This document shows, in pieces, positions 1,386 to 64,000 of a DNA stretch of 64,000 nucleotides. The position numbers and the translations under genes were made by a program. The notes below the pieces were generated by a model that was not told the DNA's origin, did not search any database, and worked only from the letters and a program-made list of their open reading frames with translations. Where the stretch lies: assembly GCF_058153355.1 (NCBI RefSeq), contig NZ_CM177019.1; one strand, given 5' to 3'. Position 1 is the first letter of the stretch. Each line of letters begins with the position of its first letter.

Positions 1386-2855
1386 ATGGTTTCCGAAACT
1401 AAAACCACAGAAGCGCCGGGCTTACGCCGTGAATTAAAGGCGCGTCACCTGACGATGATTGCCATTGGCGGTTCCATCGGTACAGGTCTTTTTGTTGCCT
1501 CTGGCGCAACGATTTCTCAGGCAGGTCCGGGCGGGGCATTGCTCTCGTATATGTTGATTGGCCTGATGGTTTACTTCCTGATGACCAGTCTCGGTGAACT
1601 GGCTGCTTACATGCCGGTTTCCGGTTCGTTTGCCACTTACGGTCAGAACTATGTTGAAGAAGGCTTTGGCTTTGCGCTGGGCTGGAACTACTGGTACAAC
1701 TGGGCTGTGACTATTGCCGTTGACCTGGTTGCTGCGCAGCTGGTTATGAGCTGGTGGTTCCCGGATACACCCGGTTGGATCTGGAGTGCGCTGTTCCTCG
1801 GCGTTATCTTCCTGCTGAACTACATTTCGGTCCGTGGCTTTGGTGAAGCAGAATACTGGTTCTCACTGATCAAGGTTACGACGGTTATTGTCTTTATTGT
1901 TGTCGGCGTGCTGATGATTATCGGTATCTTCAAAGGCGCACAGCCTGCGGGCTGGAGCAACTGGACAATCGGCGAAGCACCGTTTGCTGGTGGTTTTGCG
2001 GCAATGATCGGCGTGGCAATGATTGTCGGCTTCTCTTTCCAGGGTACCGAGCTGATCGGTATTGCTGCAGGCGAGTCCGAAGATCCGGCGAAAAACATTC
2101 CACGCGCGGTACGTCAGGTGTTCTGGCGAATCCTGTTGTTCTATGTGTTCGCGATCCTGATCATCAGCCTGATTATTCCGTACACCGATCCGAGCCTGCT
2201 GCGTAATGATGTGAAAGACATCAGCGTCAGTCCGTTCACCCTGGTATTCCAACACGCGGGTCTGCTCTCTGCGGCGGCGGTGATGAACGCTGTTATTCTG
2301 ACGGCGGTGCTGTCAGCGGGTAACTCCGGTATGTATGCGTCTACTCGTATGTTGTACACCCTGGCGTGTGACGGTAAAGCGCCGCGCATTTTCGCTAAAT
2401 TGTCGCGTGGTGGCGTGCCGCGTAACGCGCTGTATGCGACGACGGTGATTGCCGGTCTGTGCTTCCTGACCTCCATGTTTGGTAACCAGACGGTATACCT
2501 GTGGTTGCTGAACACCTCTGGTATGACAGGCTTTATTGCCTGGCTGGGGATTGCGATTAGCCACTACCGCTTCCGTCGCGGTTACGTATTGCAGGGACAC
2601 GACATTAACGATCTGCCGTACCGTTCAGGCTTCTTCCCACTGGGGCCGATCTTCGCATTCATTCTGTGTCTGATTATCACTTTGGGCCAGAACTACGAAG
2701 CGTTCCTGAAAGACACCATTGACTGGGGCGGCGTAGCGGCAACATATATTGGTATCCCGCTGTTCCTGATTATCTGGTTCGGATACAAGCTGATTAAAGG
2801 AACTCACTTCGTACGCTACAGCGAAATGAAGTTCCCGCAGAACGATAAGAAATAA
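1386..2855 (+). CDS. lysP: Lysine-specific permease (APC family)
   Basis: 489-aa ORF with 12-TM amino acid permease signature; N-terminus MVSETKTTEAPGLRRELK; synteny. Confidence 0.95.
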   Translation: MVSETKTTEAPGLRRELKARHLTMIAIGGSIGTGLFVASGATISQAGPGGALLSYMLIGLMVYFLMTSLGELAAYMPVSGSFATYGQNYVEEGFGFALGWNYWYNWAVTIAVDLVAAQLVMSWWFPDTPGWIWSALFLGVIFLLNYISVRGFGEAEYWFSLIKVTTVIVFIVVGVLMIIGIFKGAQPAGWSNWTIGEAPFAGGFAAMIGVAMIVGFSFQGTELIGIAAGESEDPAKNIPRAVRQVFWRILLFYVFAILIISLIIPYTDPSLLRNDVKDISVSPFTLVFQHAGLLSAAAVMNAVILTAVLSAGNSGMYASTRMLYTLACDGKAPRIFAKLSRGGVPRNALYATTVIAGLCFLTSMFGNQTVYLWLLNTSGMTGFIAWLGIAISHYRFRRGYVLQGHDINDLPYRSGFFPLGPIFAFILCLIITLGQNYEAFLKDTIDWGGVAATYIGIPLFLIIWFGYKLIKGTHFVRYSEMKFPQNDKK

Positions 2856-2876
2856 GTTTCCTCCCTTCCTTGCTAA

Positions 2877-2902
2877 GCCCTCTCAACCGAGAGGGCTTTT
2901 TC
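2877..2902 (+). terminator. Rho-independent terminator downstream of lysP
   Basis: GC stem gccctctc / gagagggc with loop aacc, followed by tttttc. Confidence 0.6.
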
Positions 2903-2949
2903 AATTCTATTTCCCTGACAAATCATGTGGATATAAATCTTAACATTTG

Positions 2950-2980
2950 GATTGATAATTGTTATCGTTTGCATTATCGT
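2950..2980. promoter_or_regulatory. Fur box in the cirA promoter region
   Basis: gattgataattgttatcgtttgcattatc resembles the Fur consensus GATAATGATAATCATTATC; cirA is a classical Fur-repressed gene. Confidence 0.55.
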
Positions 2981-3147
2981 TACGCCGAAATCAAAAAAGG
3001 CTGACAAATCAGGGGCTGTTCCGGCTTTCTGGGATGATCACCTGCATACAAATAAGTCCACCGCGATGCTGCCGTACGCAAGGGGACGTGAAAAAGATGT
3101 GAGCGATAACCCATTTTATTTTCGTAGTTACCTCATGGAGATATGGA

Positions 3148-5127
3148 ATGTTTAGGTTGAACCCCTTCGTACGGGTCGGGCTGTGTTTGTCCGCTATTTC
3201 TTGTGCATGGCCTGTGTTAGCGGTCGATGATGATGGCGAAACGATGGTTGTCACCGCATCTTCCGTTGAGCAAAACCTTAAAGATGCACCCGCCAGTATC
3301 AGCGTCATTACCCAGGAAGACCTGCAGCGAAAACCAGTACAGAATCTAAAGGATGTGCTCAAAGAAGTGCCTGGCGTACAACTGACGAACGAAGGGGATA
3401 ACCGTAAGGGCGTTAGTATTCGTGGTCTGGACAGCAGCTACACCCTGATTCTCGTCGACGGTAAACGCGTTAACTCCCGCAATGCCGTCTTCCGCCACAA
3501 TGATTTCGATCTGAACTGGATCCCGGTCGATTCCATCGAACGTATTGAAGTGGTCCGTGGCCCGATGTCGTCGCTGTACGGTTCCGATGCGCTCGGCGGT
3601 GTCGTGAATATCATCACCAAAAAAATCGGTCAGAAATGGTCGGGTACCGTTACTGTCGATACCACCATTCAGGAACATCGCGATCGCGGTGATACCTATA
3701 ACGGTCAGTTCTTTACCAGCGGGCCATTAATTGACGGTGTGCTGGGAATGAAAGCTTACGGCAGCCTGGCAAAACGTGAAAAGGATAACCCGCAAAACTC
3801 AACTACCACCGATACCGGAGAAACGCCGCGTATTGAAGGATTCTCCAGCCGCGACGGCAATGTGGAATTTGCCTGGACGCCGAATCAAAATCACGATTTT
3901 ACTGCCGGATACGGTTTTGACCGTCAGGATCGTGATTCCGACTCGCTGGACAAAAACCGCCTGGAACGTCAGAACTACTCCGTCAGCCATAATGGGCGTT
4001 GGGATTACGGCACCAGCGAACTGAAATACTACGGTGAGAAAGTCGAAAACAAAAACCCTGGCAACAGCAGCCCGATTACTTCCGAAAGCAATACGGTCGA
4101 TGGTAAATACACGTTGCCACTGACGGCGATTAATCAGTTTGTTACGGTTGGCGGTGAATGGCGTCACGACAAACTTAGCGATGCAGTAAACCTGACCGGA
4201 GGAACAAGCTCCAAAACGTCTGCCAGCCAGTACGCGCTGTTTGTGGAAGATGAATGGCGGATCTTCGAGCCGCTGGCGCTGACGACCGGCGTGCGTATGG
4301 ACGATCACGAAACCTACGGTGAACACTGGAGTCCTCGTGCCTACCTGGTTTATAACGCCACCGACACCGTAACGGTGAAAGGGGGCTGGGCGACGGCATT
4401 TAAAGCGCCTTCTCTGTTGCAACTTAGCCCTGACTGGACGAGCAATTCCTGCCGTGGCGCATGCAAGATTGTGGGTAGCCCGGATCTGAAACCTGAAACC
4501 AGCGAAAGTTGGGAGCTGGGGCTTTACTACATGGGTGAAGAAGGCTGGCTGGAAGGGGTTGAATCCAGCGTGACCGTTTTCCGCAACGATGTAAAAGATC
4601 GTATCAGCATCAGCCGTACGTCTGACGTCAATGCTGCTCCGGGCTACCAAAACTTTGTCGGTTTTACAGCGGACGGTGTGCCAGTATTCAGCTACTACAA
4701 CGTTAACAAAGCACGTATTCAGGGCGTGGAAACCGAACTGAAAATTCCGTTCAACGATGAATGGAAACTGTCGATCAACTACACCTACAACGATGGTCGT
4801 GATGTCAGCAACGGCGAAAACAAACCGTTGTCCGATCTGCCGTTCCATACCGCTAACGGTACGCTGGACTGGAAACCGCTGGCGCTGGAAGACTGGTCAT
4901 TCTATGTTTCTGGTCACTATACCGGGCAGAAACGCGCCGACAGCGCGACGGCTAAAACTCCGGGCGGTTATACCATCTGGAATACCGGCGCGGCCTGGCA
5001 GGTGACCAAAGACGTCAAACTGCGTGCGGGTGTGCTGAACCTTGGCGACAAGGATCTCAGTCGTGACGACTACAGCTATAACGAAGACGGACGTCGTTAC
5101 TTTATGGCAGTGGATTATCGCTTCTGA
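3148..5127 (+). CDS. cirA: TonB-dependent outer membrane receptor CirA (colicin I receptor / catecholate siderophore receptor)
   Basis: 659-aa ORF with signal peptide, TonB box (ETMVVTAS), plug and beta-barrel, and C-terminal aromatic residue (…VDYRF). Confidence 0.95.
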
Positions 5128-23604: not shown

Positions 23605-24504
23605 CTATAAAAAGTGCAGAAACTGACTTAAAGCATAAGAAGGCGTTTCGTTATTACGCCAAAACACACCGACGCTGCCTTTCTGTTCAATCTTTGGCAG
23701 GTTGAGGATCACCAGTTGCCCCTGGCTGGCATAACGTTGCGCCAGGCGTAATGACAAAATAGAGATCATATTGCTGCTTTGTAACAGGTTGGTACTGACG
23801 TTCATCGACGCCGACTCAATCGTGTTTTCTGGCAGCATCACGCCGTGGTCTACCAGCGCATTATCAATGCTGATGCGGATGGGGGTACCTGTCGGCCAGA
23901 CTATCCACCGCCAGTTAGCAAGATCATTCCAGCTGAGGGTGGCGTATTTCGCCAGTGGATGCTCAGGACGGGCGACAAAGCATACCGGCTCGGTGTAGAG
24001 CACGCGATAATTCAGCGGCAGCTGCAACGCGCGACCGCCAATTCGCCCAACCACCACATCGATAGAACCTGCCAACAGATCTTGCAGCAATGGGGTCATC
24101 ACCTTCTCTTCGATATTCAGGTGTAGAGTTGGCATCTCCTTGAGCAAATGCAAAATCGCCTGGGATACGCAGTCAGTGGCGACGGGAGAACAGCCAATTT
24201 TCAGACTGCCGACCAGTCCACCTTGTTTAAAACGGGCCAGTTCATGTTGCGAGCGCTCCATGTCATTGATTAACCGCTGGGCATGTTGCAATAACAATCT
24301 ACCGCCTTCGGTAGGGCGTAACCCTTTGCTGTGCCGCTCAAAGAGTGTGAGGCCGATCTCATCTTCGAGTTGTGACAACCATTTCGACAGCGCAGGCTGG
24401 GTGATATTCATCATCCGCGCGACATGGGTCAGATTGCCCTGTTCACCCAGCGCCACCAGCATTTGCAGGTGATGAAGCTTTAGTTTCTGCGCCCAGTTTG
24501 CCAT
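23605..24504 (-). CDS. mhbR: LysR-family regulator of the 3-hydroxybenzoate/gentisate cluster (MhbR-like)
   Basis: HTH MANWAQKLKLHHLQMLVALGEQGNLTHVARMMNITQPALSKWL; divergent from the catabolic operon; start chosen at the Met preceded by GGAGG. Confidence 0.8.
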   Translation of the reverse strand: MANWAQKLKLHHLQMLVALGEQGNLTHVARMMNITQPALSKWLSQLEDEIGLTLFERHSKGLRPTEGGRLLLQHAQRLINDMERSQHELARFKQGGLVGSLKIGCSPVATDCVSQAILHLLKEMPTLHLNIEEKVMTPLLQDLLAGSIDVVVGRIGGRALQLPLNYRVLYTEPVCFVARPEHPLAKYATLSWNDLANWRWIVWPTGTPIRISIDNALVDHGVMLPENTIESASMNVSTNLLQSSNMISILSLRLAQRYASQGQLVILNLPKIEQKGSVGVFWRNNETPSYALSQFLHFL

Positions 24505-24509
24505 TTGCC

Positions 24510-24525
24510 ATAACCTCCAGGTTAT
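24510..24525. promoter_or_regulatory. Palindromic LysR-type box (ATAACC-N4-GGTTAT) at the mhbR/mhbT divergent promoter
   Basis: ataacctccaggttat, a perfect inverted repeat immediately upstream of the mhbR start. Confidence 0.4.
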
Positions 24526-24630
24526 CTCTCTGCCCGAAATGCCATTGTACATTTCATCTCTTTAATCACAATATCGCAACATACATAAAACAAAAGAAAC
24601 ATCTACCTTACCTGCACTGAGGCATTTACT

Positions 24631-25989
24631 ATGACTCAACGACGTGATTTACAAGCACTGATCGATGCTGCTCCGGTCGGCAAGATGCAGTGGCGCGTTA
24701 TCATCTGCTGTTTTCTGGTGGTAATGCTCGATGGTTTTGACACCGCGGCTATCGGATTTATCGCCCCTGATATTCGCACTCACTGGCAACTCACCGCAGG
24801 CGATCTCGCCCCGCTTTTTGGCGCGGGTCTGCTGGGATTAACCGCAGGCGCACTGCTTTGTGGCCCGTTGTCTGACCGCTTTGGCCGCAAGCGGGTGATT
24901 GAGCTGTGCGTCTTTTTATTTGGCGCGTTAAGTCTCGCCTCTGCGTTTTCACCAGATCTGCAAACGCTGGTATTACTGCGTTTTCTCACAGGGCTTGGGC
25001 TTGGCGGGGCGATGCCGAACACCATCACCATGACCTCGGAGTATCTGCCTGCCCGCCGCCGAGGCGCGCTGGTGACGCTGATGTTTTGCGGCTTTACGCT
25101 GGGTTCGGCGTTTGGCGGGATTGTCAGCGCACAGCTGGTGCCGGTGATTGGCTGGCACGGGATCCTGGTGTTGGGTGGCGTATTACCGCTGATGCTGTTT
25201 GTCGCACTGCTTGTGATTCTTCCGGAATCGCCACGCTGGCAGGTGCGCCGCCAGTTACCACAGGCGGTGATTGCAAAAACTGTCAGCGCCATTACCCGCG
25301 AGCGTTATGTCGATACCCACTTTTATCTCAATGAATCAGCCTCCGTTACAAAAGGCAGCATTCGTCAACTGTTTATGGGACGTCAGTTACCCATTACGTT
25401 GATGTTGTGGGTAGTGTTCTTTATGAGCCTGCTGATTATTTACCTGCTCTCAAGCTGGATGCCAACGCTGTTGAACCATCGCGGCATAGACCTGCAACAC
25501 GCGTCCAGGGTCACCGCCGCGTTCCAGATTGGCGGTACGTTGGGCGCGCTGGCGCTGGGCGTGCTGATGGATAAGTTCAATCCTTTCCGCGTGCTGGCGC
25601 TGAGCTATGCCGTAGGCGCTGTATGCATCGTGATGATTGGCTTAAGCCAGGATGGATTATGGCTGATGGCGCTGGCGATTTTCGGCACCGGCATTGGCAT
25701 TAGCGGATCTCAGGTGGGGTTGAACGCGTTGACCGCAACGCTCTACCCAACGCAAAGCCGCGCCACGGGCGTGAGCTGGTCAAACGCCGTAGGCCGCTGC
25801 GGCGCGATTGTCGGCTCGCTTTCTGGCGGCCTGATGATGGCGATGAATTTCTCTTTCGACACCCTGTTTTTCATTATCGCTGTGCCCGCGGCGATCAGTG
25901 CGGTGATGTTAAGCCTGCTGATCGCCGTGGTTCGCCAGTCGACCTCTGTCCCTGACTCACTGCCTCGCGCAGGCGTTGTGAACGAATAA
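24631..25989 (+). CDS. mhbT: MFS aromatic acid (3-hydroxybenzoate/gentisate) transporter, MhbT-like
   Basis: 452-aa 12-TM MFS ORF with motif [12 protein letters not shown]; first gene of the catabolic operon. Confidence 0.8.
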
Positions 25990-26000
25990 GGAGCATCCTA

Positions 26001-27029
26001 ATGACTGATAACAATCAAAAAAGCCGCGAGCAATTTTATCAGCATATTTCCGGGCAAAACCTGACCCCGCTGTGGGAGTCACTGCACCACCTGGTGCCGA
26101 AAACGCCCAACGCCAACTGTGCGCCAGCGTACTGGAATTATCAGGAGATCCGCCCGCTGCTGCTGGAGAGCGGCAGCCTGATTGGTGCGAAAGAGGCCGT
26201 GCGCCGCGTGCTGGTGCTGGAAAACCCGGCGCTGCGCGGGCAGTCTTCCATTACCGCGACTTTATATGCCGGTTTGCAACTGATCATGCCGGGCGAAGTG
26301 GCACCGAGTCATCGTCATAATCAGTCGGCGCTGCGTTTTATTGTTGAAGGCAAAGGGGCATTTACCGCCGTTGATGGCGAACGCACGCCAATGAATGAGG
26401 GCGATTTTATCCTGACCCCACAATGGCGCTGGCACGATCATGGTAACCCTGGCGACGAACCGGTTATCTGGCTCGATGGGCTGGATCTGCCATTAGTGAA
26501 CACTCTGGGCTGCGGTTTTGCCGAAGATTACCCGGAAGAGCAACAACCGGTAACGCGTAAAGAGGGCGATTATCTGCCGCGTTACGCTGCCAATATGTTG
26601 CCGCTGCGCCATCAGACGGGGAACTCCTCACCGATCTTTAACTATCGTTATGACCGTAGCCGCGAAGTGCTGCACGATTTAACCCGCCTGGGCGATGCCG
26701 ACGAGTGGGATGGCTACAAAATGCGCTATGTCAACCCGGTCACCGGCGGCTATCCGATGCCGTCGATGGGCGCCTTCCTGCAACTGCTACCGAAAGGGTT
26801 CGCTTCCCGCGTGGCGCGTACCACTGACAGCACTATCTACCATGTAGTGGAAGGTAGCGGACAAGTCACCATCGGCAATGAAATCTTCACCTTTAGTGCA
26901 AAAGATATCTTTGTGGTGCCGACCTGGCACGGCGTGTCATTCCAGACTACGCAAGATACCGTTTTATTCAGTTTTTCGGACAGACCGGTACAAGAAGCCC
27001 TGGGGCTGTTCCGCGAAGCGCGTTATTAA
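26001..27029 (+). CDS. mhbD: Gentisate 1,2-dioxygenase (bicupin)
   Basis: 342-aa ORF with cupin His motif ([17 protein letters not shown]...) and two cupin halves. Confidence 0.9.
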
Positions 27030-27044
27030 TTTGGGAGAGAGAAA

Positions 27045-27746
27045 ATGACTCAATATGTATTCGAACCACAAGCGCCCGTTACCGTACCGGTTGTTGGCAG
27101 TGATGAACAATTCCCCGTGCGCCGCGTTTACTGCGTCGGGCGTAACTATGCCGCCCACGCCCGCGAAATGGGCTTTGATCCGGATCGTGAACCCCCCTTC
27201 TTCTTCTGCAAACCAGCAGATGCCGTTGTTCCGGTCGCCGCTGGCGAAACGCTGGCGCTGCCGTATCCGGCGCAGACCGATAACTATCATTACGAAATTG
27301 AACTGGTGGTGGCGATTGGTAAAAAGGGCAGCGATATCCCACTGGAAAAGGCCCATGAATATGTCTGGGGTTATGCCACAGGCCTTGATATGACGCGCCG
27401 GGACCGTCAAATGGAAATGCGTCAGATGGGCCGCCCGTGGGAAATCGGCAAAGCATTTGATCTCTCGGCCCCCATCGCACCGCTGCACAAAGCCAGCGAA
27501 ACCGGCGGTATTGATAACGCACCAATCTGGTTACAGGTAAACGGTGAAGATCACCAGCGCAGCGATATTCGCCATCTCATCTGGTCGGTGAATGAAACCA
27601 TCAGCTACCTGTCAGGCTTCTTTGAGCTGCAACCGGGCGATCTGATCTTCACTGGTACGCCAGAAGGGGTGGGCCCGGTAGTGAAAGGTGATGTGATCAC
27701 GGGCAACGTCGAGGGCTTAACCCCTATCGCGGTGAAGATTGTCTGA
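27045..27746 (+). CDS. mhbH: Fumarylpyruvate hydrolase (FAH family)
   Basis: 233-aa ORF with fumarylacetoacetate-hydrolase-family fold signature (…[15 protein letters not shown]…). Confidence 0.85.
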
Positions 27747-27751
27747 GGTGC

Positions 27752-28399
27752 ATGATGAAGCTGTACAGTTTTTTTAATAGTTCAGCATCGTACCGGGTAC
27801 GCATTGCGCTGGCGCTGAAAGGCATTAATTACCAGACCGAAGGGGTGAATATCCGTATTGGTCAGCAAAATGAACTGGCCTATCGGCGGATGAATCCTGT
27901 CGGGCTGGTGCCGACGCTGCTGACTGACGAGGGCGAGTCACTCGGTCAGTCGCTGGCGATTATTGACTGGCTGGATCGTCACTACCCGCAAGTTCCGCTG
28001 GTGCCGCAGGAAGAACCGGCCCGCAATAAGGTGCTGGAAATTGTCTATGCCATCGCCTGTGATATTCATCCATTGAATAACCTGCGCGTGCTGCGCTACC
28101 TGACCGAAGAGCTGAACGTCAGTGAAGAAGAGAAAAAACGCTGGTATGCGCACTGGATCCAGCAAGGTTTAAGCGCGGTGGAACAGCTACTGCGCCAGAG
28201 CCAGTCGGGGCAATTTTGTGTGGGTGAGACGCCGACGCTGGCAGACTGCTGCCTTGTTCCGCAGTGGGCGAACGCGCTACGTATGAACTGCGATCTGAGT
28301 GGATATCCGCGCTGCAAAGCGGTGTACGACGCCTGCACACAACTGCCAGCGTTCATTGCCGCAGCGCCAGAAAATCAACAAGATAAAATTTCAGCCTGA
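27752..28399 (+). CDS. mhbI: Maleylpyruvate isomerase (zeta-class glutathione S-transferase)
   Basis: 215-aa ORF with GST N-terminal thioredoxin-like start MKLYSFFNSSASYRVRIALALKG. Confidence 0.85.
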   Translation: MMKLYSFFNSSASYRVRIALALKGINYQTEGVNIRIGQQNELAYRRMNPVGLVPTLLTDEGESLGQSLAIIDWLDRHYPQVPLVPQEEPARNKVLEIVYAIACDIHPLNNLRVLRYLTEELNVSEEEKKRWYAHWIQQGLSAVEQLLRQSQSGQFCVGETPTLADCCLVPQWANALRMNCDLSGYPRCKAVYDACTQLPAFIAAAPENQQDKISA

Positions 28400-28413
28400 C
28401 CAGGAGAACCATA

Positions 28414-29607
28414 ATGACTAAAGTGACACGCGCAGTAATTGTGGGAGGCGGGATCGGCGGTGCGGCAACTGCGCTGTCACTGGCCCGCCAGGGGATCAAA
28501 GTGGTGCTGCTGGAAAAGGCGCATGAGATCGGTGAGATTGGCGCAGGTATCCAGTTGGGGCCAAATGCGTTTTCGGCGTTGGATAGTCTTGGTGTTGGCG
28601 AAATCGCCCGCCAACGTGCGGTATTCACCGATCACATCACCATGATGGACGCGGTGAACGCCGAAGAAGTGGTGCGTATTGAAACCGGGCAGGCCTTTCG
28701 TGACCATTTCGGCGGCCCTTACGCGGTGATCCTCCGGGTTGATATTCATGCCTCGGTGTGGGAAGCGGTACTGACGCATCCGGACGTGGAGTATCACACC
28801 TCTACGAATGTCGTGGATATTCGTGAGACGGAAGACGATGTCACCGTTTTCGACGATCGAGGTAATAGCTGGAGCGGCGATATTTTGATTGGCTGTGATG
28901 GCGTGAAGTCAGTGGTGCGCCAGAGCTTATTAGGCGATGCGCCGCGCGTCACCGGTCATGTGGTCTACCGTGCGGTTATCGATTGTGCGGATATGCCGGA
29001 AGATTTACGTATTAATGCGCCGGTATTGTGGGCGGGTCCGCACTGTCACCTGGTACATTATCCTTTGCGCGGCGGCAAGCAGTATAACCTGGTGGTGACA
29101 TTCCACAGCCGCCACCAGGAAGAGTGGGGCGTGAAGGATGGCAGTAAAGAGGAAGTGCTTTCCTATTTTGAAGGCATTCACCCGCGTCCTCGCCAGATGC
29201 TGGATAAACCGACGTCATGGCGACGCTGGTCAACGGCCGATCGTGAACCGGTAGGGAAATGGGGGACTAACCGCATTACGCTGGTGGGCGATGCGGCCCA
29301 TCCGGTGACGCAGTATATGGCACAAGGTGCCTGTATGGCGCTGGAAGATGCAGTAACGCTGGGTAAGGCGCTGGCGCAGTGTGAGGGTGATGCGGCGCAA
29401 GCTTTTGCGCTGTATGAGTCGGTACGTATTCCGCGTACCGCGCGCATCGTCTGGTCGACCCGTGAAATGGGGCGGGTTTATCACGCCGCAGGGGTAGAAC
29501 GTCAGGTACGTAACCTGCTGTGGAAAGGGAAATCGCAGGCAGAGTTTTATCGCGGCATGGAGTGGCTGTACGGCTGGAAAGAAGATAACTGTCTGCAACC
29601 ACGCTGA
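28414..29607 (+). CDS. mhbM: 3-hydroxybenzoate 6-hydroxylase (FAD-dependent monooxygenase)
   Basis: 397-aa ORF with FAD-binding GxGxxG (VIVGGGIGGAATAL) and the DG and GD motifs of flavin hydroxylases. Confidence 0.85.
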   Translation: MTKVTRAVIVGGGIGGAATALSLARQGIKVVLLEKAHEIGEIGAGIQLGPNAFSALDSLGVGEIARQRAVFTDHITMMDAVNAEEVVRIETGQAFRDHFGGPYAVILRVDIHASVWEAVLTHPDVEYHTSTNVVDIRETEDDVTVFDDRGNSWSGDILIGCDGVKSVVRQSLLGDAPRVTGHVVYRAVIDCADMPEDLRINAPVLWAGPHCHLVHYPLRGGKQYNLVVTFHSRHQEEWGVKDGSKEEVLSYFEGIHPRPRQMLDKPTSWRRWSTADREPVGKWGTNRITLVGDAAHPVTQYMAQGACMALEDAVTLGKALAQCEGDAAQAFALYESVRIPRTARIVWSTREMGRVYHAAGVERQVRNLLWKGKSQAEFYRGMEWLYGWKEDNCLQPR

Positions 29608-29638
29608 GTACTTCTTACCCAATCAGGTGCACGGACGG

Positions 29639-29676
29639 TCCCCTCGCCCCTTTGGGGAGAGGGTTAGGGTGAGGGG
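29639..29676. repeat. G/C-tract structured repeat at the junction between the mhb cluster and dusC
   Basis: tcccctcgcccctttggggagagggttagggtgagggg, with nested inverted repeats cccc-ttt-gggg and ccctc...gaggg. Confidence 0.4.
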
Positions 29677-29726
29677 AAAAATCTTGCCCGAATTAATCAG
29701 TAAGTCAGTTTGTCTGCAAACACCAG

Positions 29727-29755
29727 AGGCGCTAACATAGCGCCTCATTTTTTTG
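29727..29755 (+). terminator. Rho-independent terminator after the mhb operon
   Basis: aggcgctaacatagcgcct hairpin followed by cattttttt; lies inside the long ORF-track N-terminal extension of dusC, which argues for the downstream dusC start. Confidence 0.5.
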
Positions 29756-29766
29756 CGGGTGATGAT

Positions 29767-30714
29767 ATGCGTGTGTTACTGGCGCCGATGGAGGGTGTAC
29801 TCGACTCTCTGGTGCGTGAATTGCTGACCGAAGTTAACGACTACGATCTGTGCATCACCGAGTTTGTCCGCGTGGTGGATCAACTGCTGCCGGTAAAAGT
29901 TTTTCATCGCATTTGCCCGGAGCTACAAAACGCCAGCCGAACGCCATCCGGTACGCTGGTGCGCGTGCAATTGCTGGGTCAGTTCCCACAATGGCTGGCA
30001 GAGAACGCCGCCCGTGCGGTGGAGTTAGGTTCCTGGGGTGTGGATCTTAATTGCGGCTGTCCGTCGAAAACGGTTAACGGTAGCGGCGGCGGGGCGACAC
30101 TACTCAAAGATCCTGAACTCATCTACCAGGGTGCAAAAGCGATGCGTGAAGCTGTACCGGCGCATTTGCCCGTCAGTGTGAAAGTGCGTCTGGGCTGGGA
30201 CAGCGGTGAGAAGAAATTTGAAATCGCCGATGCGGTTCAACAGGCTGGCGCTACGGAGTTGGTGGTGCATGGGCGGACAAAAGAGCAGGGGTACCGCGCG
30301 GAGCATATTGACTGGCAGGCGATTGGCGAGATTCGCCAACGGCTGAATATTCCAGTGATTGCCAACGGTGAAATCTGGGACTGGCAGAGCGCGCAACAGT
30401 GTATGGCGATCAGCGGCTGTGACGCGGTGATGATTGGTCGCGGAGCGCTCAATATTCCCAATCTGAGCCGAGTGGTAAAATACAACGAACCGCGAATGCC
30501 GTGGCCGGAGGTGGTTGCTTTGCTACAAAAATATACCCGTCTGGAAAAGCAGGGCGATACCGGGTTATATCACGTTGCGCGGATTAAACAGTGGTTGAGT
30601 TATTTGCGTAAAGAATACGATGAAGCAACAGAATTATTTCAGCATGTTCGGGTGTTGAATAATTCCCCTGATATTGCAAGGGCTATTCAGGCAATTGATA
30701 TCGAGAAACTCTAA
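29767..30714 (+). CDS. dusC: tRNA-dihydrouridine(16) synthase DusC
   Basis: 315-aa product starting [36 protein letters not shown]; TIM-barrel Dus family. Confidence 0.9.
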
Positions 30715-31086
30715 GAAACCATAGTGATGTTTTTTGACAATGTGTTAGCTCTTTATCAATAGGCCGCACGGTTGTTTGGTGGCGTCAAAATCGCCGAGGC
30801 GTTCCCTGAAGGCCGGGGCAGCCCACATGGATGTGGGCTGAGGGCGCGTTTTACAGGGATGTTACCTCGCGCCCGACCCGGTAGCCGTAAGGGATAAGCC
30901 GAGGGCACCGCGCAGCGGCGATTTTGTTCGCCAGAGCCCGGGGGTGCAGGGGGCGGCGGCGACTGGTCGCCCCCTGCGCGCTCCTTGCGCTAGTGATTAT
31001 ATGAAGCAATGCACATGACAGGAGCGCAACAGGATGAGAGACTGAAATATTCTCGTTATTTTCGGATCTGATGACGTTAATTAATT

Positions 31087-31170
31087 TTAAAATATCATCT
31101 TAAATACGCCAGTCACCACCAGTAGTCCAATCAGGAAAATAATCAATACAGCCCAGAGTATAATTTTCAT
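31087..31170 (-). CDS. yohP: Small membrane protein YohP (27 aa)
   Basis: Reverse-strand ORF MKIILWAVLIIFLIGLLVVTGVFKMIF; below the ORF-track size cut-off and read manually. Confidence 0.75.
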   Translation of the reverse strand: MKIILWAVLIIFLIGLLVVTGVFKMIF

Positions 31171-31393
31171 TGGCGTTCCTTTATTTGTGAGTGTCGAATA
31201 AGTATAGGAAAAAACGAAGCCCTTTGCCGTTACTCATAAGTGATTAAGATAAATCGGAGAATATCATTCACTTACTGTATATTTTTCTGAATATGTCGTT
31301 TTATTGCCACTGATGTATTGCCACGCGAAACTAAAAAATATATTGCATCACACGGTAATCTCCGCGCACCTTTTCTTACCTGACTATTCCTCC

Positions 31394-32830
31394 ATGAATC
31401 GTGATTCCTTTTACCCAGCCATCGCCTGTTTTCCTCTGTTACTGATGCTGGCCGGGTGTGCGCCTATGCATGAAACCCGCCAGGCGTTAAGCCAGCAAAC
31501 ACCCGCTGCGCAAGTTGACACCGCATTACCTACGGCGCTGAAAAATGGTTGGCCAGACAGCCAATGGTGGCTGGAGTATCACGATAATCAACTCACTTCA
31601 TTAATTAACTATGCACTGCAGAACGCACCGGATATGCAGGTGGCTGAACAGCGCATTCAGCTGGCTGAAGCCCAGGCGAAGGCAGTTGCCACTCAGGATG
31701 GCCCTCAGATCGATTTTTCTGCGGATATGGAGCGGCAAAAAATGTCGGCAGAAGGGCTAATGGGGCCGTTTGCTCTGAACGATCCTGCCGCAGGTACGAC
31801 CGGTCCGTGGTACACCAATGGTACTTTTGGCTTAACGGCGGGCTGGCATCTTGATATTTGGGGAAAAAATCGGGCGGAGGTTACTGCTCGCCTCGGTACG
31901 GTTAAAGCACGGGCGGCGGAACGCGAGCAAACCCGCCAATTGCTGGCTGGCAGCGTAGCCCGCCTGTACTGGGAGTGGCAAACCCAGGCAGCGTTAAACA
32001 CTGTTTTGCAGCAAATCGTAAAAGAGCAGAACACCATTATCGCGACCGATCGCCAGCTATATCAGAACGGGATTACTTCTTCAGTTGAAGGTGTGGAAAC
32101 CGATATTAATGCTAGCAAGACCCGGCAGCAGCTCAACGATGCCGTGGGAAAAATGAAAATTATTGAGGCACGGTTAAGCGCACTTACAAATCACCAGATA
32201 AAGTCATTGAAGCTTAAACCGGTTGAGTTGCCGAAAGTGGCAAGTCAGCTTCCTGATGAACTGGGGTATTCATTGCTGGCACGGCGGGCAGATTTGCAGG
32301 CAGCGCATTGGTACGTTGAGTCATCGTTAAGCACCATTGATGCGGCAAAAGCGGCATTTTATCCTGACATCAACCTGATGGCCTTCCTGCAACAGGATGC
32401 GTTGCACTTAAGCGATTTGTTCCGTCATTCCGCGCAGCAAATGGGCGTTACGGCAGGCCTGACGCTACCCATTTTCGATAGTGGTCGTCTTAACGCCAAC
32501 CTCGATATTGCAAAAGCCGAAAGCAACTTGTCTATCGCCAGCTACAACAAAGCGGTGGTTGAAGCGGTGAATGACGTGGCGCGGGCAGCCAGTCAGGTTC
32601 AGACGCTGGCGGAGAAAAACCAGCATCAGGCGCAAATTGAGCGCGATGCCTTGCGTGTGGTAGGTCTTGCGCAGGCCCGCTTTAACGCGGGTATCATTGC
32701 TGGTTCCCGCGTCAGCGAAGCCAGAATCCCGGCGCTGCGTGAGCGGGCCAATGGCCTGTTATTGCAAGGGCAGTGGCTGGATGCCTCCATTCAACTCACT
32801 GGTGCGTTGGGCGGGGGTTACAAACGCTGA
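31394..32830 (+). CDS. mdtQ: Outer membrane efflux lipoprotein, OMF/NodT family (MdtQ), apparently intact
   Basis: 478-aa product from MNRDSFYPAIACFPLLLMLAGCAP with lipobox LAGC; TolC-like repeats; uninterrupted frame. Confidence 0.85.
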   Translation: MNRDSFYPAIACFPLLLMLAGCAPMHETRQALSQQTPAAQVDTALPTALKNGWPDSQWWLEYHDNQLTSLINYALQNAPDMQVAEQRIQLAEAQAKAVATQDGPQIDFSADMERQKMSAEGLMGPFALNDPAAGTTGPWYTNGTFGLTAGWHLDIWGKNRAEVTARLGTVKARAAEREQTRQLLAGSVARLYWEWQTQAALNTVLQQIVKEQNTIIATDRQLYQNGITSSVEGVETDINASKTRQQLNDAVGKMKIIEARLSALTNHQIKSLKLKPVELPKVASQLPDELGYSLLARRADLQAAHWYVESSLSTIDAAKAAFYPDINLMAFLQQDALHLSDLFRHSAQQMGVTAGLTLPIFDSGRLNANLDIAKAESNLSIASYNKAVVEAVNDVARAASQVQTLAEKNQHQAQIERDALRVVGLAQARFNAGIIAGSRVSEARIPALRERANGLLLQGQWLDASIQLTGALGGGYKR

Positions 32831-32882
32831 TGATATACGCCTTCTATACTTAACGTTTATTCAGCGTTAAGTGGAGAACTCG

Positions 32883-33644
32883 ATGGCACAGGTCGCGATT
32901 ATTACCGCTTCCGATTCGGGGATCGGCAAAGAGTGCGCGTTATTACTGGCGCAGCAGGGTTTTGATATTGGTATTACCTGGCACTCAGATGAAGAAGGGG
33001 CAAAAGATACCGCGCGTGAGGTGGTTAGCCACGGCGTACGTGCGGAGATGGTGCAGTTGGATCTCGGTAAACTGCCAGAGGGGGCACTGGCGCTGGAGAA
33101 ACTTATTCAACGGCTGGGGCGCATCGATGTGCTCGTGAATAATGCGGGCACAATGACCAAAGCGCCGTTTCTTGATATGGCTTTCGATGAGTGGCGCAAG
33201 ATTTTTACCGTTGATGTTGATGGTGCATTTTTATGCTCGCAAATTGCGGCCCGCCAGATGGTGAAACAAGGGCAGGGCGGTCGCATCATCAACATTACGT
33301 CGGTACATGAGCATACGCCGCTGCCGGATGCCAGCGCCTATACAGCCGCTAAACATGCACTCGGTGGGCTAACCAAAGCGATGGCGCTTGAGCTGGTCAG
33401 GCATAAGATTTTGGTGAATGCAGTCGCGCCTGGGGCTATCGCCACGCCAATGAATGGCATGGATGACGGCGACGTGAAGCCCGACGCGGAGCCTTCGATT
33501 CCCCTGCGGCGTTTCGGCGCAACGCATGAGATTGCCAGCCTGGTGGCGTGGTTATGCTCTGAAGGCGCAAATTACACCACCGGGCAGTCGTTAATTGTCG
33601 ATGGTGGCTTTATGCTGGCGAATCCGCAGTTCAACCCAGAATAG
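32883..33644 (+). CDS. yohF: Short-chain dehydrogenase/reductase YohF
   Basis: 253-aa product with SDR motifs TASDSGIGKE (cofactor binding) and Y-x3-K (YTAAKHAL). Confidence 0.9.
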   Translation: MAQVAIITASDSGIGKECALLLAQQGFDIGITWHSDEEGAKDTAREVVSHGVRAEMVQLDLGKLPEGALALEKLIQRLGRIDVLVNNAGTMTKAPFLDMAFDEWRKIFTVDVDGAFLCSQIAARQMVKQGQGGRIINITSVHEHTPLPDASAYTAAKHALGGLTKAMALELVRHKILVNAVAPGAIATPMNGMDDGDVKPDAEPSIPLRRFGATHEIASLVAWLCSEGANYTTGQSLIVDGGFMLANPQFNPE

Positions 33645-33691
33645 CACTGTGAGGTGCGTGGTTATTTCAATGGGTAATCTTTGGTAGGTAT

Positions 33692-33762
33692 GATAAGACG
33701 CATAAGCGTCGCATCAGGCATGGTGCGACGGATGTCGGATGCGGCGCAAACCGCCTTATCCG
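33692..33762. repeat. REP/BIME elements between convergent yohF and yohD
   Basis: gataagacgcataagcgtcgcatcaggcat and cggatgcggcgcaaaccgccttatccg. Confidence 0.6.
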
Positions 33763-33773
33763 AGGCAATGGTT

Positions 33774-34352
33774 TTACGCCTGATCATCCGGCTTTTTCTT
33801 CCCGCGCCGTTTCAGCCACCAGCGCACGCCAACCACCAGAACCACGACCAGAATCAACCAGACCCAGTGCTTCAAATGCTGGTCGAGATTGTGCAACCAC
33901 GGCGCAATCACCTGACCACCAGCATAACCGATAGTGGTAAAAATCAACGCCCAGGCAAATGCGCCGAGAATATTCAGCGGCAGAAAGATTTTCGGCGGCA
34001 GCTGGCTGGCACCAATCAGCGTCGGGCCAATCACCCTAAAGCCATACATAAAACGCGTACCAATGACAAACAGATACGGATGGCGTTGGATAAGTTTCTG
34101 CGCCCGCTCAATTTTATCCTGATGTTTCGAGAAACGGCGTAATAGCTTGCCGCCAAAGCGCCGCCCGCACAGATAAAGCACCTGGTCGCCAATCATGCCG
34201 CCAAGCGCCACAGAAAGTACCACCAGCGGGAACTTTAATAGTCCCTGATGTGCCGCAACGCCTCCCAGCAAAGTCACGGTTTCACCTTCCGCCAGGCTAC
34301 CGATCACCAGCGCGGCATAACCATATTGTGAGATGAGTGTATTGAGATCCAT
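33774..34352 (-). CDS. yohD: DedA-family inner membrane protein YohD
   Basis: 192-aa ORF with DedA/SNARE-associated fold; synteny. Confidence 0.9.
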   Translation of the reverse strand: MDLNTLISQYGYAALVIGSLAEGETVTLLGGVAAHQGLLKFPLVVLSVALGGMIGDQVLYLCGRRFGGKLLRRFSKHQDKIERAQKLIQRHPYLFVIGTRFMYGFRVIGPTLIGASQLPPKIFLPLNILGAFAWALIFTTIGYAGGQVIAPWLHNLDQHLKHWVWLILVVVLVVGVRWWLKRRGKKKPDDQA

Positions 34353-34521
34353 AGGCCAGTCTGTCTCCCTTTAGTTGCCTGTAAGCATACACCCTGTGAA
34401 TAGTTAACGCTGAAAAAGGACATACATCAGACGGTGCAAATTACATGAGCGAACAAAAAATAATCACAAGCTGACTTATACTTGAACTGTCAGGTTCATG
34501 AACTCACAACAAGGGGGCGGT

Positions 34522-60290: not shown

Positions 60291-63200
60291 TTATTCAAAC
60301 AGGGCTTCGATGTCGTTAATTAACTCGCTAGCGGTGATGTCATCGAGTGCGGAGAACTGCGCTTCCTGTGTTGAATTAATCCCCCAGCCATAGCTTTCTG
60401 CTTTGCCTTCCCATAGCCACAGCTTGCTTAAGAGTTGCTCGGCACTGAGTTCGGCTGGCGACATACCAACTGCAAATCCTTCATCGATTTCCATGATTAA
60501 TGACCAGCGGCCCAGAGGTTTGATCATCCAGCCGATCCAGCCACCGTCCTGCGGTTCACCACGCATCCAGCCTTTATTCGCCAGCCCCATTACCCGACCG
60601 CTCGGGCATTTTCTGCCTGCCCAGCGGGTCAATTCGCTGGCATTGCGCTCGGTTTCTGTCAGGGCGTAACTGTTACGGTCGAGCTGGCGGAACGGCGGTA
60701 GCAGTTCGTAGTCGGCAAAAAGCTGACCAAAGGCGGCAGCATCCGTGGGTGATATTTCCAGAACGTGAGGAATGCCAACAGAGATATCGCCTTCCGGCAG
60801 GGTGAAAAGATCATCGTCAGCGGTGCTGTAGCTGTTATCTTCCGCCACACGGAAGCACGCCAGTAACTGGTTGTCTGCGCTATAAATGCCCCAAATCAGA
60901 CGGCGGGTTAAGTGGCAGACCAGCGGATGCTCAACCAGAAAGAGCTGAAAGTTTTCTGGCGACCAGCGGCGGCGCAGGCACATGGCGGATTCCAGCCTTG
61001 CCACCTGCTGGGCGGCAACGGTACGCGCATCTTTTTTCAGCAGTTTGTAGCGGTTAACTGCATCGTTCGCTTGAGTTTCATCATCGCTTTTGTTCGGTTT
61101 AGGCAAGTCTTTCAGGCGGCTGCCGGAAGCATCACGCACAAACGGTTTTAAGGTTTCATCAAAGCTGACGGTGAACTGCCGTGGCCCGAAATCCAGCAGC
61201 AGCGAACCGTTATCATCCAGACCGAGATCCGGTGCTAACCGGTCTTCAAGCTCCGCCACCGTGAGTTCGCGGCTCTCGGCAATGTCGGCAATTTTTTCTT
61301 TTGCCCGCTCCTGTAATGCTTTGAATTTCAGTTTCTGGGCGATGCCGTTAAGCTGCATCAGGGCGATATCACTACCGATAGCAGCGAGAATATCCAGCCC
61401 GACGGTGGCGCGTTTATGCTGGGATTCACCAGGCCAGGCGCGAATCAAAGGCGTCAGTTTGCGGGCGGTATCATCGTTGCCGAGAACACCTAACGCAGTG
61501 AACGCCCAGCTTTCTTTCGACGGTGCGCCAGCGGTCTGCCAGGCGGTAAACAGATCCCAGGCAAATTCAGCCAGTGAGTCGGCGGTACAGGCATCTTTCA
61601 CCTGCAATAACCCCGCATACAGAGCCTCTTCCTGAGGGAAGCGGAGCATTTCACCGAGGTGGAGGAGGGCGTTATCTGGCAGTGATTGGGCGTTTGCTTT
61701 TAATACCGGGCGTGTCCAGAGCGATGGCTGATAAAAGGCCGGAAGTGTCGGGATTTTAGTCGGGTGATTATCTAAGGGATCGAGCGCAAGTAGAGCGTTC
61801 ACCGCATCGGTTACTTCCGGCTGGTTATAACGCTGGGCGATTTCTTGCAGTAATGACGGATAACCACTTTCAATCAACATACGTAAGGCGGCGCGGGCGT
61901 TATCCTGGGCTTCACCAGCTTTGCCGAGTGCCGCAGGCAACAGGCCGATAATGGCATGTTCCGGATATTTCAGCAGCCAGGTGCGGGCGTCTTGTCGTAG
62001 AGTTTTGAGTTTGTTAAAGGCGCGGGCGACGGCAGGAGCCAGTTCCGTTGCGGCAAAATAATTAGCAACCGCAAAACCTTCTTGAGGGTAGCGTGAAAAC
62101 GAGTGTAGAAAACCACTCATACCTGCCAGTCGCAAATAAAGCATGACAGGTTTTACCGCGGTATGCGGCTCTTTGCTGAGAAACTCCCATAGTTTAATCG
62201 CTGTTTGCATAGGTAAAAAGGGAAGTGAGTTGAGATGCCACTCCCCCTGATACGGTGCATGGTGGGCTTTAAACATTTGGATGAGTGTAGCGAAGTCCTC
62301 ACGTTCCCATGCGTCAATTGCCGAGTCAGAAGCGCCGATATATTTATATGTGTCAAAATCCCAGCGGCGATACCCCAGCGAGTAAAGGAAATCTTTAGCA
62401 CCTTCACCTGGCTTATGCGATTCCCAGTCCCAATGAGTTTGAAACTCTTTTGCTTCTGTGTCGGTTATTGTGCATATGGATTTGAGTTTGAGCGGTGCTA
62501 AATCCAACACCGGAATCGTCGATTTTTTCTTTTTCGAAAGCCAGGGAGGTAAGACTAATACGGCTGGCAGTAGAGCGGCGCAGGCATGGTTTGACGGTTG
62601 TATCAGTTGTTGCTGGCATGATTTCAGCACTTCAACTGCGGCTGTCGAGAGCCAGGGAGTGACCTGTTCTGCCAGTGCCGGTTGCGAGATAAGCATCGTC
62701 ATTAGCATAATGCGCCAAGTATTCTCTTCTTTTTGCGCAAGAAGTTCCGCCAGTGCCGCCAGTGCTGCGTGTGGGAACGCAGCGCAAGCTTTCGTCATCC
62801 GATCGTGACAGCGTTTAGTTTGCCCGGCTACACGTATGAGCAGTGTTAATGCGAACGGATGATTGATATGACGCAATACATCTGCGCAGTAGTCACTTGC
62901 GGCATAGGGAGCAAATCTGGGCAGGGCTGCAACACCTTGCTCCTGTAATACGGTGGCTGACAATATCGCACCACAATAGTAATCATCAAAAATGGCATAT
63001 GGCTCGTGATATTTTTCTAATGAGGCAAGAATGTGCTCATCAGTCGCCACTATTTTTAGCCACTCAAGCGAGGGTAATTTTTTTTTCCCCAGTAGACGCT
63101 GGGCAATTTCATGTGCAATTTCTGGTTTTTCGGGTAATAACAAAGCAATTAATGGTTGCCGCCATTCTGGAATATGTGGAATTGCGGCAATAAGTTTTTG

Positions 63201-64000
63201 TGCACATTTTTGCCAGAGAGACTCTTCCGCCAGTGATAAATGTTTCCGTAGGCGTAATTCAAAACTGGAATATTGCTGCAGGTTATCAGGTGCAATACCA
63301 GACGGCAGAATAATAATGGTATTATTCGCATAATCCCATTCAATATCAATCTGTTGAAGATGTATTACTACATCAGTAGCATATTCCAGGCCACCTTCCT
63401 GAACGAGCTGATCCATAACATCCTCACGCTCTTTATATCTCGTGCACTTCAGTTCAAGTGCCGTGAGTACAGCCATTACTGGTGATGGTAACTGTGTTGT
63501 TTTCAGGCAGTCGATCTGACTGAGCGCCTGGGAGATGGCGTTTTGCCATTCTAAAGAACAGGCGCTGAAGTCAAATGTGGCTGTTTTATTATCCCGTTGC
63601 AACACGCTACAGGCTAAGCGGCGTAACTGGGTCAATTCGTCTGCTTGCTGAACAGGAACTCCGGGAAAGCGGCGATGGCTTAACGTGGTGTGTACAACTT
63701 CGGGCGGAAAAACGACAGCAATATCTTTCGCCAGCCACGGTAAAACATCATCTGTATTTTTGTCAGCCACACGGGCTTCTGCTACGCAAAAGGGTTGTTC
63801 CTGAATAATGGTGGATAAGGCCGCTACCTTGAGAGAATCCGTTACCGTTTGGGAAGGTTGCAAAGAATTATCCTTCGCTTGCCCCACATACCCCTTCTTC
63901 ACCTTCTCCGCAATCAGCCTCAGTTCCGCTTTTTCCGCCGCCGCAGCATCAGCAAAGCTTTTTACCTGGCTTTGCCCGTTGGTACTGACTTTGCCCCAAC
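60291..64000 (-). CDS. molR: Giant DUF4132-family protein MolR (YehH/YehG/YehF equivalent), intact frame, 5' end beyond window
   Basis: Uninterrupted reading frame from 60291 to the window edge, with no in-frame stop in 63903-64000; paralogue of yehI. Confidence 0.8.
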   Translation of the reverse strand, partial: WGKVSTNGQSQVKSFADAAAAEKAELRLIAEKVKKGYVGQAKDNSLQPSQTVTDSLKVAALSTIIQEQPFCVAEARVADKNTDDVLPWLAKDIAVVFPPEVVHTTLSHRRFPGVPVQQADELTQLRRLACSVLQRDNKTATFDFSACSLEWQNAISQALSQIDCLKTTQLPSPVMAVLTALELKCTRYKEREDVMDQLVQEGGLEYATDVVIHLQQIDIEWDYANNTIIILPSGIAPDNLQQYSSFELRLRKHLSLAEESLWQKCAQKLIAAIPHIPEWRQPLIALLLPEKPEIAHEIAQRLLGKKKLPSLEWLKIVATDEHILASLEKYHEPYAIFDDYYCGAILSATVLQEQGVAALPRFAPYAASDYCADVLRHINHPFALTLLIRVAGQTKRCHDRMTKACAAFPHAALAALAELLAQKEENTWRIMLMTMLISQPALAEQVTPWLSTAAVEVLKSCQQQLIQPSNHACAALLPAVLVLPPWLSKKKKSTIPVLDLAPLKLKSICTITDTEAKEFQTHWDWESHKPGEGAKDFLYSLGYRRWDFDTYKYIGASDSAIDAWEREDFATLIQMFKAHHAPYQGEWHLNSLPFLPMQTAIKLWEFLSKEPHTAVKPVMLYLRLAGMSGFLHSFSRYPQEGFAVANYFAATELAPAVARAFNKLKTLRQDARTWLLKYPEHAIIGLLPAALGKAGEAQDNARAALRMLIESGYPSLLQEIAQRYNQPEVTDAVNALLALDPLDNHPTKIPTLPAFYQPSLWTRPVLKANAQSLPDNALLHLGEMLRFPQEEALYAGLLQVKDACTADSLAEFAWDLFTAWQTAGAPSKESWAFTALGVLGNDDTARKLTPLIRAWPGESQHKRATVGLDILAAIGSDIALMQLNGIAQKLKFKALQERAKEKIADIAESRELTVAELEDRLAPDLGLDDNGSLLLDFGPRQFTVSFDETLKPFVRDASGSRLKDLPKPNKSDDETQANDAVNRYKLLKKDARTVAAQQVARLESAMCLRRRWSPENFQLFLVEHPLVCHLTRRLIWGIYSADNQLLACFRVAEDNSYSTADDDLFTLPEGDISVGIPHVLEISPTDAAAFGQLFADYELLPPFRQLDRNSYALTETERNASELTRWAGRKCPSGRVMGLANKGWMRGEPQDGGWIGWMIKPLGRWSLIMEIDEGFAVGMSPAELSAEQLLSKLWLWEGKAESYGWGINSTQEAQFSALDDITASELINDIEALFE

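Follow-up and report, generated by a model that had tools for sequence, protein, structure and literature searches.

The window (the whole stretch of DNA that was analysed, 64,000 nt of contig NZ_CM177019.1 from assembly GCF_058153355.1) carries the gene mdtQ (yohG), which encodes a lipoprotein of the outer-membrane factor (OMF) class. The gene order around it, dusC-yohP-mdtQ-yohF-yohD-yohC-pbpG, is identical to that of K-12, other E. coli and Salmonella, and mdtQ thus lies at its orthologous position. The small gene yohP is placed upstream and divergently, and yohF follows on the same strand. The coordinates of the gene, of its predicted domains and of its immediate neighbors are collected in table 1.

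Table 1. Features of the mdtQ locus in the window (positions are those of the whole window)
Feature	Position	Strand	Basis and remarks
mdtQ (yohG) CDS	31394..32830	+	478 codons + TGA, intact; NF008524, 1013 bits; PF02321 in two stretches
Lipoprotein signal peptide	31394..31459	+	regex and hydropathy check; lipobox at 31448-31459
A5 run, codons 50-51	31541..31545	+	alignment; GAAAAAT here, GAAAAT in K-12 (A4)
First OEP repeat, aa 69-266	31598..32191	+	Pfam
Predicted beta-barrel strands 1-2, aa 105-116 and 139-153	31706..31852	+	AlphaFold2 and DSSP
Predicted beta-barrel strands 3-4, aa 325-336 and 348-357	32366..32464	+	AlphaFold2 and DSSP
yohP, 27-aa small membrane protein gene	31087..31170	-	translation MKIILWAVLIIFLIGLLVVTGVFKMIF; annotated in homologous loci; divergent from mdtQ
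yohP-mdtQ divergent intergenic region	31171..31393		alignment; conserved across lineages
yohF, SDR oxidoreductase gene	32883..33644	+	starts 52 nt 3′ of mdtQ

An earlier note on this DNA had described mdtQ as an uninterrupted frame of 478 codons, and this is what was found: the frame runs from the ATG at 31394 to the TGA at 32828-32830, it spans 1437 nt and it has zero internal stops. The longest open reading frame starts further upstream, at a TTG at 31304 (508 aa), and this start was rejected. In detail, the ATG at 31394 is taken as the start because the family model NF008524 aligns there from residue 1 to 478 with positions 1-478 of the protein, and because a sensible signal peptide is obtained only from this ATG.

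The protein belongs to the OMF/NodT family and to the MdtQ equivalog on every computational criterion, in agreement with the family named in the earlier note. The MdtQ equivalog of NCBIfam (NF008524) scored 1013.2 bits (cut-off 650) and was aligned over residues 1-478 of 478, and the NodT lipoprotein subfamily of outer membrane factors (TIGR01845, TC 1.B.17) scored 276 bits (cut-off 210.05). The next-best NCBIfam match was the MdtP model NF007390, at 348.5 bits (E = 6e-104), below its cut-off of 597. The TolC subfamily of type I secretion outer-membrane proteins (TIGR01844) gave only 56.8 bits, far short of its cut-off of 225.15. The description of MdtQ as TolC-like is therefore valid at the level of the fold and fails at the level of the TolC subfamily. 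Two tandem OEP repeats were recognized by Pfam (PF02321, E = 1e-32, two stretches), the second of which covers approximately aa 285-477, and the secondary structure of the predicted model also shows the internal duplication.

The lipoprotein signal with the motif LAGC, which had also been noticed before, is present as well. The N-terminus (MNRDSFYPAIACFPLLLMLAGC followed by APMH) shows a hydrophobic h-region, a canonical lipobox L19-A20-G21-C22 and an alanine at position +2. Cys22 is invariant across an alignment of 68 homologues with identities down to 27%. The alanine at +2 would imply sorting of the mature lipoprotein to the outer membrane by the Lol system.

The AlphaFold2 model of MdtQ, built on this alignment of 68 sequences, showed a mean pLDDT of 86.5 and a pTM of 0.81. 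Four beta-strands and helices of up to 73 residues were assigned by DSSP, in the duplicated pattern of an OMF protomer. When the model was compared with the PDB by Foldseek, OprN, VceC, CusC, CmeC and OprM were retrieved at E values of about 1e-22, with TM-scores of 0.75-0.81 (query-normalised) and 0.81-0.87 (target-normalised); for OprN, VceC and CusC the target-normalised values were 0.85-0.87. An OMF protomer fold of the OprM/VceC/CusC type is thus confidently predicted for MdtQ.

MdtQ was compared with three known outer-membrane factors. Among solved structures, VceC of Vibrio cholerae (PDB 1yc9) is the closest in sequence (E = 7e-39 over aa 51-477 of MdtQ), with a target-normalised TM-score of 0.87 and an identity of approximately 26%. 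VceC is the outer-membrane factor of the MFS-type pump VceAB and is also a lipoprotein; its gene lies in an operon with the adaptor and the pump, whereas mdtQ is an orphan. TolC (PDB 1ek9) shares the overall fold with MdtQ (Foldseek E of about 1e-13 to 7e-13, TM-scores of 0.66-0.73) at an identity of 12-13%. Contrary to MdtQ, TolC is not a lipoprotein, and it has been proven to work with the AcrAB, EmrAB and MacAB pumps. MdtP of E. coli, encoded in ytcA-mdtNOP, is a paralogue, as MdtQ falls below the MdtP equivalog cut-off; it sits in an operon of the type YtcA-adaptor-FUSC-OMF, whereas mdtQ has neither an adaptor nor a transporter gene next to it.

The orthologous locus of K-12 MG1655 (b2139) has the same neighbors, is 1436 nt long and is annotated as a pseudogene, in agreement with the earlier note. 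In the pairwise alignment with the K-12 locus, proposed there as a check, the two sequences differ by a single indel and 53 substitutions (96.3% nucleotide identity). The indel lies in the A5 run at 31541-31545, where K-12 lacks one A, and it is the sole difference that breaks the frame. Owing to this loss the K-12 frame stops after 69 codons; when the A is restored, the K-12 gene encodes a full-length protein with 7 residues different from those of the window. MdtQ (YohG) of O157:H7 (UniProt Q8X659, accession as in PMC11762307) corresponds to the same gene as in the window, with 478 aa, the lipobox and the same synteny.

In order to follow this difference through the species, probes of 50 and 51 nt for the A4 and A5 forms were designed with the homopolymer inside every 28-mer seed. 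Of the 5,426 complete E. coli genomes, 5,420 contain mdtQ DNA, and in 5,390 of these a single match extends over 80% or more of the query. By probe matches, the in-frame A5 allele was found in 5,052 genomes (~93% of the 5,426) and the A4 allele of K-12 in 355. All 40 rows sampled from the A4 set were genomes of 4.47-4.74 Mb, and most were named K-12 derivatives (MG1655, DH1, BW2952, TG1, XL10, C600, and MC4100). A homopolymer run is a classic site of sequencing errors, and the length difference of a single A might for this reason be an artefact of sequencing or assembly that affects the window or the K-12 reference. This explanation is extremely improbable and has been effectively refuted by the population counts, as 355 genomes with independent assemblies share A4 and 5,052 others share A5. 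The 40 sampled A4 rows are all K-12-sized and mostly named laboratory derivatives; the split follows the lineage and not the sequencing platform.

The frameshift is confined to the K-12 laboratory lineage, and an intact mdtQ is therefore to be expected in any strain other than K-12. Eleven non-K-12 alleles were translated, and none of them contained a stop. Eight of these are loci from a spread sample (O145, strain B, O157:H7, O104:H4, bloodstream and poultry isolates), each of which is annotated as a CDS and is not marked as a pseudogene, and three further alleles complete the set. Outside E. coli, orthologues of full length (478-479 aa) were found in E. albertii, at 93% identity, and in Salmonella and Citrobacter, at 81%.

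These counts bear directly on the reading implied by the earlier note, namely, that retention of an intact mdtQ is rare and specific to this strain and sets the isolate apart. Apart from the pseudogene of the reference K-12, this reading could draw on the allele itself, which is unusual in its nucleotides: it belongs to a divergent allele group with approximately 96% identity to the majority of E. coli alleles, and only 7 genomes carry an mdtQ at least 99% identical to it. However, with A5 in approximately 93% of the complete genomes and all 11 sampled non-K-12 alleles intact, rare retention had very little probability left and is already refuted. The nucleotide divergence of the allele is, moreover, almost all synonymous (7 amino acid differences) and equals that of the whole locus. 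Of the extra retained channel that had been suggested, the intact gene stands and the unusual retention does not. The region is very probably a wild-type, intact mdtQ (yohG) allele, one of the four OMF genes of E. coli (tolC, cusC, mdtP, and mdtQ). That the intact gene is the norm in E. coli and K-12 the exception is already known and is re-derived here; a 2025 review on TolC (PMC11762307) treats mdtQ as core to E. coli despite its pseudogene label.

One exception to the intact gene outside K-12 was met, that is, strain STEC379 (NZ_CP091024.1). At 2248-3573 of this sequence an IS1A element stands in place of the 5′ part of mdtQ and its upstream region, and a 576-nt 3′ remnant is left, annotated as a partial TolC family pseudogene; this is a natural loss outside K-12. 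Independent truncations of mdtQ have been described in S. Typhi and Paratyphi A (PMC9241588).

The whole locus of the window is 95-97% identical to K-12 throughout, and the identity of 96-97% leaves enough divergence for a test of selection on mdtQ. Compared with the repaired K-12 allele, the allele of the window shows 46 synonymous and 7 nonsynonymous changes, which correspond to a dS of 0.15, a dN of 0.0064 and a dN/dS of 0.043. Judged from these substitutions, mdtQ is under strong purifying selection, which argues against a decaying gene. Two amino acid substitutions are private to the window, E209V and V250A. Inactivation of the protein by these missense changes was considered and rejected: both columns are variable, with V or A common there. 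The MdtQ protein of strain 2013C-4282 (WP_001078154.1) differs by 2 amino acids, at 99.4% nucleotide identity of the genes. The best of the 5,426 complete genomes (EC42405) reaches only ~98% identity over 24 kb of the window, which indicates a mosaic or divergent Escherichia lineage outside this genome set.

Between 31380 and 31396, before the ATG of mdtQ, no Shine-Dalgarno sequence was recognized in any of six aligned lineages (TTCCTCCATG in the window and TTCCCCCATG in K-12); the motif 5′ of the ATG is TTCCTCC in the window and TTCCCCC in K-12. A promoter and terminator scan of 30600-33800, with counts no better than those of shuffled sequences, gave no sigma-70 consensus promoter on the + strand upstream of mdtQ. 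A candidate found by eye, TTGCCA-15 nt-TATATT at 31318-31344, is weak and was set aside. According to the review PMC11762307, the promoter of mdtQ has not been experimentally confirmed. The same scan of 30600-33800 found no terminator in the gap of 52 nt between mdtQ and yohF, so that co-transcription of the two genes is possible; yohF also has its own Shine-Dalgarno sequence (GGAG, 7 nt before the ATG). The pairing of mdtQ with an SDR gene is kept in Salmonella and in a 60%-identical homologue and is absent in Citrobacter portucalensis.

Some noncoding elements were also located in this neighborhood. The Rfam scan of 29500-34500 returned no match at the gathering threshold; a REP-like element in the yohF-yohD spacer (33687-33765) matched naRNA4 (RF02564) with 50.9 bits, short of the gathering score (59.5). 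The GC-rich repeat between dusC and yohP (~30776-31046) corresponds to the published TRIP1c element (PMC10888264). Its orientation in the window is that of K-12 and EC42405. In O157:H7 the element is turned around, with 88% identity to the other strand, and judging from the alignment pattern 2013C-4282 and MS20659 appear to share this inversion.

An intact frame may still belong to a gene that is effectively cryptic, that is, poorly transcribed or translated under ordinary conditions and giving no measurable efflux, in which case the extra functional channel proposed earlier would be overstated. The upstream region is compatible with this alternative, as neither a Shine-Dalgarno sequence in any aligned lineage nor a + strand sigma-70 match exceeding the shuffled background was found, and the promoter is unconfirmed by experiment (PMC11762307). 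Furthermore, K-12, STEC379 (with IS1 at the junction) and some isolates of S. Typhi and Paratyphi A have lost mdtQ at no obvious cost, so that its loss seems tolerated. On the other hand, a dN/dS of 0.043 at a dS of 0.15, together with full-length orthologues in Salmonella and Citrobacter at 81% identity, is irreconcilable with a gene that has never been used. Products of the orthologues are also known: the YohG protein was detected in the outer-membrane/exoprotein proteome of Klebsiella ST258 (PMC4404324), and the literature reports induction of the Salmonella yohG transcript in a ciprofloxacin-selected strain and by hypochlorite. A cryptic mdtQ is considered rather doubtful. A yohG null phenotype (puromycin, acriflavine, and tetraphenylarsonium) goes back to Sulavik 2001, in the form in which PMC11762307 cites that work; if it was obtained in K-12 it would be puzzling, because the K-12 gene carries the frameshift. 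For the strain of the window, a functional MdtQ is supported only indirectly, by the purifying selection, the predicted fold and the conserved lipobox.

MdtQ has a Sec/SPII signal peptide and, from what is known of the family, would be lipidated at Cys22 and then carried by Lol transport to the outer membrane. There three protomers would assemble into a trimer, with a beta-barrel of 12 strands and an alpha-helical tunnel in the periplasm, which would dock a periplasmic adaptor and an inner-membrane pump and serve as their exit duct. No adaptor, transporter or FUSC gene adjoins mdtQ on either side (dusC, yohP, yohF, yohD, yohC, and pbpG). Any partner would have to be encoded elsewhere, and the context of the homologues makes an adaptor of the EmrA/AaeA/MdtN type with an MFS or FUSC (PET-family) transporter likelier than an RND pump.

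This context was taken from a search of 1.84 billion cluster representatives (50% clusters). The top 120 homologues of an earlier search were all at least 80% identical to MdtQ and uninformative on partners. The survey was accordingly based on the contigs of 9 full-length homologues, the nearest ones that fall outside the MdtQ clade (36-41% identity); these contigs form a small metagenomic sample. Five of the 9 homologues lie directly 3′ of a FUSC (PET-family) transporter gene, and three of these five are in complete operons of the type YtcA-adaptor-FUSC-OMF, as in the MdtNOP arrangement. Two more are found in MFS-OMF clusters, one of which continues with an EmrA-like adaptor, and the contexts of the remaining two were not resolvable. 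An RND gene was beside none of the 9 homologues, the two unresolvable contexts included in this number.

Since the nearest non-orphan homologues sit with FUSC or MFS genes and never with RND genes, a partner of the EmrA/AaeA type is suggested, and MdtQ probably belongs to an OMF branch which serves non-RND pumps with adaptors of the EmrA/AaeA/MdtN type. The search for the partner of MdtQ is narrowed by this analysis to pumps of that kind. A more specific proposal is that MdtQ is the natural exit duct for a pump with an EmrA/AaeA-type adaptor, and the aromatic-acid exporter AaeAB would be the most attractive candidate. The proposal builds on the occurrence of the homologues in tripartite FUSC/MFS operons and on the strong purifying selection on mdtQ, and AaeAB comes in as a candidate and no more because a major review lists its outer-membrane partner with a question mark, as "AaeAB-?" (PMC8277102). 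In this specific form the proposal is distinctly unlikely to be correct. If it were true, efflux genetics in K-12 would have missed this route, since the laboratory lineage alone carries the frameshift. In more general terms, conclusions drawn from K-12 on outer-membrane channels and TolC dependence should be treated with caution, as they may not transfer to natural isolates, because these carry a fourth intact outer-membrane factor.

Differences from K-12 were also noticed at two other loci of the window. Between yohJ and dusC (23605-29607) there is a 3-hydroxybenzoate/gentisate catabolic (mhb) cluster, with genes for a LysR regulator, MhbT, gentisate 1,2-dioxygenase, an FAH-family hydrolase, maleylpyruvate/maleylacetoacetate isomerase and 3-hydroxybenzoate 6-monooxygenase. 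K-12 is without this cluster, and Salmonella has the same at the same place. A single match over 80% or more of positions 20000-44000 of the window is seen in only 495 of the 5,426 complete E. coli genomes. The mhb cluster distinguishes this strain more than mdtQ does.

The second locus is found at 60291-63902 on the complementary strand, where an uninterrupted open reading frame encodes a DUF4132 protein of 1203 aa. In K-12 the respective region is divided between a CDS, yehF, and a pseudogene, yehH, with one extra base near position 61241 of the window and a divergent, indel-rich patch at approximately 62350-62470. Like mdtQ, this may be a gene that is intact in the window and a pseudogene in K-12, but the true 5′ end of the frame may fall beyond the edge of the window.
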